DNA from: a gamma proteobacterium symbiont of Ctena orbiculata
GTDB taxonomy: Bacteria > Pseudomonadota > Gammaproteobacteria > Chromatiales > Chromatiaceae
NCBI GenBank assembly: GCA_003058495.1
Contig: QBVC01000008.1
Location: 19,164 to 83,163, forward strand
Direction of reading: 5' to 3'
DNA length: 64,000 bases
Positions 63,498 to 63,638 of this stretch are shown piece after piece. Each line of letters opens with the position of its first letter. The first letter of the stretch is position 1. The position numbers were made by a program, and so were the translations under genes. The notes beneath the pieces are model-generated. The model searched no databases and had not been told where the DNA came from. It was given only the letters and a program-made list of their open reading frames with translations.

Positions 63498-63589
63498 AAA
63501 AAAGCGGGCGGGGAAGGACCCTGGAGGCAGATGGGCCGCAGTCCCCGCCCAGACTAGCGCTTAACACGGAAACGACCAACCGTGAGCGT
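63498..63589 (-). ncRNA. Putative FNR-family-activated small RNA (~92 nt)
   Basis: Two hairpins ending in a 9-bp GC stem and U6; no AUG; upstream -10 TAACCT and an FNR-like box centred at -41.5. Confidence 0.55.
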
Positions 63590-63595
63590 AGAGAG

Positions 63596-63638
63596 AGGTT
63601 AAAGATTCTTGGCCCTGCAGACATTGACGCAGGTCAAT
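63596..63638 (-). promoter_or_regulatory. Class II FNR/CRP-family promoter
   Basis: ATTGAC-GCAG-GTCAAT palindrome (63623-63638); -10 TAACCT at 63601-63596; predicted +1 is A at 63589. Confidence 0.6.

Follow-up and report, generated by a model that had tools for sequence, protein, structure and literature searches.

A conserved candidate small RNA gene with an FNR-type promoter in lucinid-clam symbionts, with dsrA as its main predicted target

Contig QBVC01000008.1 of assembly GCA_003058495.1, from a gammaproteobacterial symbiont of Ctena orbiculata in the genus Candidatus Thiodiazotropha (hereafter the genus), was analyzed over a stretch of 64,000 nt (positions 19,164 to 83,163 of the forward strand; hereafter the window, whose numbering is used for all positions given without a contig label), with attention to an intergenic element at 63498..63589 on the minus strand. 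This element is probably a conserved, previously undescribed gene for a small RNA (sRNA) of ~92 nt that has an FNR-type promoter and would act in trans on mRNAs, with dsrA as its main predicted target. A first-pass annotation made from the letters of the same DNA had proposed a free-standing, FNR-type-activated, trans-acting sRNA at this position, and what that proposal predicts at the level of sequence was borne out in relatives: the promoter geometry was kept in 48 of 48 distinct promoters, the stems of the RNA carried compensatory changes, and its loops were conserved.

Promoter, structure and conservation of the predicted RNA

The putative promoter has class II FNR geometry, with an FNR/CRP-family box, TTGACCTGCGTCAA (63624..63637, minus strand), whose centre at 63630.5 lies at -41.5 from the predicted RNA start at A 63589, the start having been deduced from the promoter geometry itself. 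The positions that the first-pass annotation had given for this box and for the -10 hexamer TAACCT (63596..63601, minus strand, -12 to -7) both proved correct. Among the homologous promoters, 48 distinct sequences from four genera, the half-sites of TTGAY-N4-RTCAA were fixed in all 48 and the four bases between them varied, while the distance from box to -10 was exactly 22 nt in every case over a stretch of variable sequence; box and spacing are thus conserved in relatives. The -10 element occurred as TAACCT, TACGCT, TAGTCT, TATTCT, TAATAT or TAGGCT, with T1, A2 and T6 fixed and the middle varying (family consensus TAnnCT/TAnnnT), and the predicted RNA start lay 6 nt beyond it at a conserved YACGC. 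A sigma-70 consensus scan found no -35/-10 pair at the sRNA promoter, which is expected because the promoter would be activator-dependent, the activator site replacing the -35; in the proposed mechanism an FNR/CRP-family dimer at -41.5 would take that place and transcription would proceed from A 63589.

RNAfold folded the 92-nt sequence (63589..63498) into two hairpins followed by U6 at -39.5 kcal/mol (z = -3.0; 1 of 200 shuffles was as stable), and the two hairpins were exactly those described in the first-pass annotation. Hairpin 1 (nt 2-32; 63558..63588, minus strand, as are the parts that follow) is formed by CGCUCACGG/CCGUG..AGCG and closes on the 10-nt loop UUGGUCGUUU at 63570..63579, within which UGGUCGUUU (63570..63578) is the predicted specific seed. 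A single-stranded linker, part of GCGCUAGUCU, follows at 63552..63557 and comprises invariant alignment columns. Hairpin 2, the putative terminator (nt 39-85; 63505..63551), is GGGCGGGGA.../...UCCCCGCCC with the apical loop AUCUGCCUCCA at 63522..63532, in which CCUCC (63523..63527) is complementary to the Shine-Dalgarno (SD) sequence and is here called the anti-SD element. The stem of hairpin 2 is GC-rich and has 10 outer pairs directly before the U6 tract (63498..63503), which, as had been noted, abuts the stop codon of a convergent epimerase gene (the tract ends at 63498 and the TAG lies at 63495-63497); transcription would end at this GC-rich hairpin and its U6. Hairpin 2 was missed by a simple terminator scan, the definition of which allows neither a loop of 11 nt nor bulges of this kind; the hairpin and the U-run are plain in the fold.

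The fold was well supported by the homologues. Across 44 distinct sequences, standard pairs occupied 97.7% of cells and 8 of the 18 pairs showed compensatory changes, values reached by 0 of 500 shuffles; when the registers were slid, only 23-50% of cells were paired. Most of the covariation came from the terminator hairpin (compensatory changes in 7 of 9 modelled stem pairs), the sequence of which varies while its pairing stays. Hairpin 1 is invariant in the genus, and the outer stem of the form found in sister genus g50 carries a compensatory U-A to A-U change; elsewhere its only changes were to G.U. The most conserved single-stranded parts were loop UUGGUCGUUU and the GCCUCC of the terminator loop, the latter invariant in four genera, and a run of T5-8 was kept in all homologues. 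The RNA contains no AUG between 63589 and 63498, in agreement with the first-pass annotation, and one-base indels among the homologues (TTAAG/TAAG, CTGGGC/CTGGC) break any reading frame, so a coding function is ruled out. The element would thereby have the anatomy of a free-standing sRNA, with its own predicted promoter, a length of 92 nt, a Rho-independent terminator, no open reading frame (ORF) and an intergenic position.

A variant 5' region was observed in the sister genus g46, where, at three loci, the interval from the -10 (TAATAT) to the conserved RNA start reads TGCCTCCAG, ~13 nt upstream of ACGC. The terminator loop has this motif too, so a 5' end placed there may include a portion of a second anti-SD element.

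By DNA search, a 170-nt block (63665..63496) was found in 35 of 36 genus genomes at 75-87% identity. An exact-pattern scan limited to a single genome for each species gave 34 loci, whose labels were all Candidatus Thiodiazotropha, Sedimenticolaceae, Chromatiales MAG or 'symbiont of Ctena orbiculata', which places the window in a sulfur-oxidizing symbiont of lucinid clams. Within a single genus, genomes do not count as independent observations. A covariance model built from 32 distinct RNAs detected one copy in the present genome and, over 151 family genomes, matched all sampled genus genomes, 3 of 3 genomes of g46, 3 of 3 of g50 and one genome of a fourth genus, g60. The element is better conserved at the DNA level than either flanking coding sequence: the first 39 nt of the RNA are near-invariant in the genus, and the adjoining RdgC falls to 67-72% amino-acid identity. 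A scan of metagenomes yielded 6 contigs only and was uninformative on transcript ends.

One Thiodiazotropha species (from Epidulcina cf. delphinae) had two divergently oriented copies ~6 kb apart, at 10872-11042 (minus strand) and 17057-17225 (plus strand) of contig JAHXHS010000017.1 (G016:C17). The second copy has several substitutions, an AUGCU 5' end and GGGCAGGG in the terminator stem.

Regulators that could read the box

In this genome, with 57.5% G+C, there are 49 TTGAY-N4-RTCAA sites, compared with ~9 expected from its composition, and ~39 of them lie outside long ORFs. Boxes adjoin fnr, ccoN (TIGR00780), nrdD (TIGR02487/NF006126), the nirS region, and uroporphyrinogen methyltransferase, nnrS and hemerythrin-like genes, as well as the gene for a cysteine-less DNR/FtrB-like regulator (examples at C34:20188, C19:11731, C34:91049, C45:10496-12293, C37:21894-22061 and C9:72881). 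Judged from the sequence, this box-bearing gene set is a typical low-oxygen and denitrification regulon. One further observation is that a box adjoins a two-cysteine DsrC-type gene at C9:72401-72790.

At least eight CRP/FNR-family regulators (HTH_Crp_2) are encoded, including an Fnr orthologue (C34:91129-91887; NF008365, 287 bits versus a cut-off of 228), which has the C-x2-C-x5-C motif CKNCSLSTLC near its N terminus, and a DNR-like protein (C37:20981-21733). Of the candidates for activating the sRNA promoter, an Fnr/Anr-type protein is favoured with modest confidence, a DNR-type regulator is possible, and another CRP/FNR paralogue is unlikely. The proposal is accordingly that the activator would most likely be an O2-sensing Fnr/Anr orthologue, possibly a DNR-type sensor of nitric oxide (NO), and, given such an activator, the RNA would be made at low oxygen or with denitrification signalling. 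Anaerobic induction of the predicted sRNA is plausible on these grounds.

The alternative that survives best keeps the same gene and the same RNA and changes the input: the activator would be a DNR/NnrR-type, NO-responsive protein or some other CRP/FNR paralogue, and the RNA would report denitrification or NO stress and not anoxia as such. The number of available regulators speaks for it, among them the cysteine-less DNR/FtrB-like protein with its own upstream boxes, and so does the form of the boxes at nirS and the dnr-like gene, TTGAC-N4-GTCAA, which is that of 29 of the 48 sRNA promoters. At position 6, however, the sRNA boxes show C or T (TTGACC, TTGACT, TTGATT) in place of the TTGACA found at the nirS and dnr sites, and 16 of the 48 sRNA promoters carry a TTGAT half-site, as do the boxes of fnr, ccoN and nrdD. 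FNR and DNR sites are not reliably told apart by sequence, as is known from the Anr and Dnr regulons of Pseudomonas. We regard this alternative as rather unlikely.

Complementarity between loop 1 and the dsrA leader

The translation-initiation regions (TIRs) of ~3,700 genes, taken from crude gene calls based on ORF length and GC3, were scanned for complements to the single-stranded parts of the RNA. Loop 1 had complements of at least 9 nt in 11 TIRs, compared with 3.8 for shuffled seeds, and 6 of 300 shuffles reached 11; the linker GCGCUAGUCU, taken as a seed, had complements of at least 9 nt in 0 TIRs versus 3.3 expected. The loop-1 matches included dsrA (TIGR02064, 554 bits), where AAACGACCA, complementary to UGGUCGUUU, stands two bases upstream of the SD; a DsrC/TusE-family gene (TIGR03342) with two loop-1 sites, one of which, GGAGACGACCAUG, spans the SD and the start codon; and the gene for a secreted Pro/Gly/Tyr-rich protein. 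A site at sucB (C10:101249) was rejected because it lies upstream of an implausible start.

The first-pass annotation had emphasized the CCUCC loop as the part that pairs with ribosome-binding sites. The loop itself stood up well, given the invariance of GCCUCC in four genera; as the specific seed it was rejected, because its complements were enriched merely like those of any GGAGG-containing word. A 22-nt match of the anti-SD loop at C48:3656 was also set aside, since it depends on stem bases that differ between species. On this evidence loop 1 is a likelier specific seed than the anti-SD loop, whose CCUCC is a generic complement of ribosome-binding sites.

The dsrA site is conserved together with the sRNA. 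The leader AAACGACCA-YTGGGAGA...ATG was kept in 30 of 30 genus genomes, with the bases directly upstream of it varying, and the box was also kept in the sister genera g46 and g50. In nine genomes of the family without the sRNA it was missing from 12 of 12 dsrA leaders, including those of genomes whose DsrA is 84-92% identical, and these 12 boxless leaders retain the (A)TGGGAGA context of the SD. A pattern scan of the 151 family genomes found the dsrA-type box in 10 of 10 genomes with a canonical sRNA and in one 40%-complete genome, with three further matches in unrelated contexts; the reversed control gave one match. The full arrangement AAACGACCA-N1-12-GGAG-N4-11-ATG occurred 70 times in 41 genus genomes, versus 2 for the reversed control, and 40 of the 70 were dsrA, the rest including the DsrC-like gene, the Pro/Gly/Tyr-rich protein gene and ~19 others. 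The leader of the Pro/Gly/Tyr-rich protein gene keeps AAACGACC in 13 of 13 orthologues; in the DsrC-like leader the box is present in about two thirds of the orthologues, and in some of the others it reappears 10 nt upstream. No FNR-type boxes were found within 400 nt upstream of the dsrA, DsrC-like or Pro/Gly/Tyr-rich protein genes. The predicted RNA thus appears to expose a conserved single-stranded seed, loop 1, that is complementary to conserved mRNA sites with which it is predicted to pair.

Two observations concern these target genes. Some g46 and g50 genomes have a second, more distant dsrA copy (~69% identity) whose leader is without AAACGACCA; the box there is confined to the copy most similar to that of Thiodiazotropha. 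The Pro/Gly/Tyr-rich protein (216 aa, C4:51386-52036, plus strand) had no Pfam or NCBIfam match, its leader has a conserved AAACGACCAA box, and its composition may be reminiscent of sulfur-globule proteins.

In the mechanism that we propose, the RNA would base-pair with its targets in trans, probably together with Hfq, the gene for which is present (PF17209, 104.6 bits). Loop 1 UGGUCGUUU would pair with (A)AACGACCA boxes situated 2-15 nt upstream of, or over, the SD of a few mRNAs, and the GCCUCC of the terminator loop may add pairing with the SD itself. Only dsrA, the first gene of the reverse dissimilatory sulfite reductase, is predicted as a universal target, with the DsrC/TusE-family gene and the gene for the secreted Pro/Gly/Tyr-rich protein as secondary candidates. 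The net effect would be an O2- or NO-dependent tuning of stored-sulfur oxidation, by default through translational repression, with activation also possible, and the invariant linker may be a site of protein binding (perhaps by Hfq) or of processing. That such an O2/NO-responsive sRNA directly gates the translation of dsrA, and maybe of other sulfur-handling proteins, by loop-leader kissing at AAACGACCA is a tentative proposal.

An alternative view of the same conservation is that the RNA is real and acts chiefly by binding protein or the ribosome, as an anti-SD mimic or a sponge, and that the AAACGACCA boxes are unrelated to it. The invariance of the first 39 nt, paired bases and linker included, exceeds what a 9-nt seed needs, and the lack of enrichment of linker complements in TIRs fits this view as well. 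It does not account for the co-occurrence of box and sRNA across the family or for the excess of the box-SD-ATG arrangement over its reversed control, and no GGA (CsrA-type) motifs were found in the loops. As a replacement for pairing this explanation is improbable; the RNA may nonetheless have a protein-binding role beside pairing, because of that same surplus invariance at its 5' end.

Several points weigh against an FNR-controlled sRNA that pairs with dsrA. The transcript is a prediction, as are its start site and its induction. The assignment of the promoter to FNR is not unique, because at least eight CRP/FNR regulators are encoded and the same TTGAC...GTCAA half-sites also flank nirS and the dnr-like genes. 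The stem of hairpin 1 has little support from covariation, because it hardly varies. The 9-bp seed is short, and in a genome-wide blastn-short search with the sRNA, 12-13-mer matches occurred at chance frequency. Two of the best single-genome matches are in accessory genes and were rejected as core targets: a lipoprotein gene at C14:16979, matched over 13 nt and present in 2 of 41 genomes, and a DsrE-like gene at C51:132943, present in 8 of 41. In the g60 sRNA the first hairpin is remodelled, and its loop and 3' stem, GCUCGUUCUUC, are complementary over 11 bp to the local dsrA leader, GGAGAACGAGC; this match lends weak support, because the same leader is present in g60 genomes with no detected sRNA, and it resembles other class-2 dsrA leaders. 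The target evidence as a whole is correlative and phylogenetically clustered, coming from three or four related genera, and the AAACGACCA of the dsrA leader could be there for a different factor specific to the clade. The terminator, finally, may also end transcripts of rdgC.

Genomic setting, known sRNAs and implications

A gap of 195 nt separates the rdgC stop codon (63693, minus strand) from the TAG of the epimerase gene (63495-63497, plus strand), and the element lies in this gap. The 3' part of rdgC (63693..64000, minus strand; Pfam RdgC, E = 5.6e-112) is the upstream neighbour on the same strand, and the NAD-dependent epimerase/dehydratase gene (62487..63497, plus strand; Pfam Epimerase, E = 1.4e-53) is the convergent downstream neighbour. 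By protein comparison, the order rdgC (same strand), sRNA, convergent epimerase gene was found in most genomes, including those of the sister genera, with epimerase orthologues 85-92% identical and in the same position in four genera; some genomes carry the element without an adjoining rdgC or epimerase gene. In the relative G073 the rdgC and convergent epimerase genes are kept around an intergenic region of ~60 nt from which the sRNA is absent, a natural 'empty site'. The element is therefore a discrete unit that is either present or absent and is not intrinsic to either neighbour. A mobile, context-changing repeat, which had been considered on the basis of blastn matches limited to the 170-nt core, was rejected, since synteny is conserved and the element is single-copy.

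This setting bears on a further explanation, according to which the hairpin and U-tract are only the terminator or 3' untranslated region of rdgC and a barrier toward the epimerase gene, and the box regulates something else or nothing. Such a reading draws on the position of rdgC upstream on the same strand in most genomes and on the lack of a convincing terminator between rdgC and the element, but it leaves unexplained why a terminator should come with an invariant 39-nt 5' domain, a conserved loop and a fixed distance between box and -10. It is further contradicted by the arrangement in G073, by the higher DNA conservation of the element than of either flanking coding sequence, by the genomes in which the element has neither gene alongside, and by the genome with two copies, and we consider it very improbable. 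A cis-acting leader or riboswitch, or a small-protein gene, is hardly credible: a GUG-initiated frame is open through the RNA here (an overlapping 93-aa ORF, 63343..63624), but the RNA has neither AUG nor SD, the one-nt indels among homologues break the frame, no Rfam riboswitch matched, and a leader or riboswitch is ruled out because the next downstream gene is convergent in nearly all genomes and the terminator is strong and constitutive-looking.

A second conserved dyad, AATAACC-N13-GGTTTATT (63636..63663, minus strand; centre at about -60.5), overlaps the left half of the FNR-type box. Its arms are invariant in the genus, its spacer is A/T-rich and variable, and the g50 form is AATAACT-N13-GGTTAATT. 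Its interpretation as a regulon motif was rejected because there is no second site in the genome, as a divergent -10 because the sixth base is not conserved, and as an RNA hairpin because there is no covariation. It may resemble type-2 sites of IscR, from which it is off by one base.

The first-pass annotation had recognized no known family in the element, and a cmscan search of 63300..64000 on both strands with 4227 Rfam models at E <= 10 agreed, returning two chance eukaryotic matches and no bacterial family. At the same threshold the candidate was not matched by the FnrS model (RF01796) or by the models for PhrS, AniS/NrrF-type, RsaE/RoxS and CcsR. FnrS of Enterobacteriaceae is the closest parallel in design, being likewise an intergenic RNA of ~100 nt with a class II FNR site at -41.5 and an intrinsic terminator; it is reportedly FNR-activated and Hfq-dependent and is said to repress mRNAs at or near their ribosome-binding sites under low oxygen. 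The candidate differs from it in showing no homology, in belonging to Sedimenticolaceae, in carrying its putative seed in a hairpin loop, and in having predicted targets in sulfur oxidation and not in aerobic or central metabolism. AniS of Neisseria and PhrS of Pseudomonas aeruginosa are trans-acting sRNAs of oxygen limitation with an FNR/ANR box upstream. The candidate shares with them an FNR/ANR-type box but no Rfam-level similarity, and PhrS, an activator of pqsR, has a small ORF of its own, of which the candidate RNA has none. RsaE/RoxS of Firmicutes, CcsR ('cuckoo') and AbcR of Alphaproteobacteria pair with SD sequences through C-rich, CCUCC-like loops, and RoxS answers to redox and NO. 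The candidate, by contrast, has a single CCUCC, located in the terminator loop, and a second loop that is not C-rich and appears to give specificity; it matches none of their Rfam models and belongs to another phylum with other regulators. PaiI of P. aeruginosa PA14 is reported to be an anaerobically induced, denitrification-linked sRNA (PMC5703892); it depends on NarXL and nitrate and not on a CRP/FNR box, and it has no sequence relation to the candidate.

Because no Rfam model matches, the candidate is not a member of the FnrS, AniS or PhrS families. We read it as a new sRNA family that would be functionally analogous to FnrS. The searchable literature yielded no sRNA described for Thiodiazotropha and its relatives and nothing relevant on small RNAs of dsrAB or on non-coding RNA in metatranscriptomes. 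The candidate would lengthen the short list of FNR-type-controlled sRNAs by one family and provide annotators with a covariance model that serves about four genera; of greater novelty is the predicted connection with the reverse dissimilatory sulfite reductase. The locus offers a defined input in the FNR-type box, a falsifiable output in the dsrA leader box, and a comparative control in close relatives where the synteny is kept but RNA or box is missing.

Candidatus Thiodiazotropha and its relatives are uncultured sulfur-oxidizing symbionts of lucinid clams that live at steep and fluctuating gradients of oxygen and sulfide, and we know of no account of how they match the oxidation of stored sulfur to the electron acceptor at hand. 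If the reading given here is true, this RNA would be the first example of a riboregulator acting on sulfur oxidation and would tie the use of stored sulfur, post-transcriptionally, to the supply of electron acceptors.

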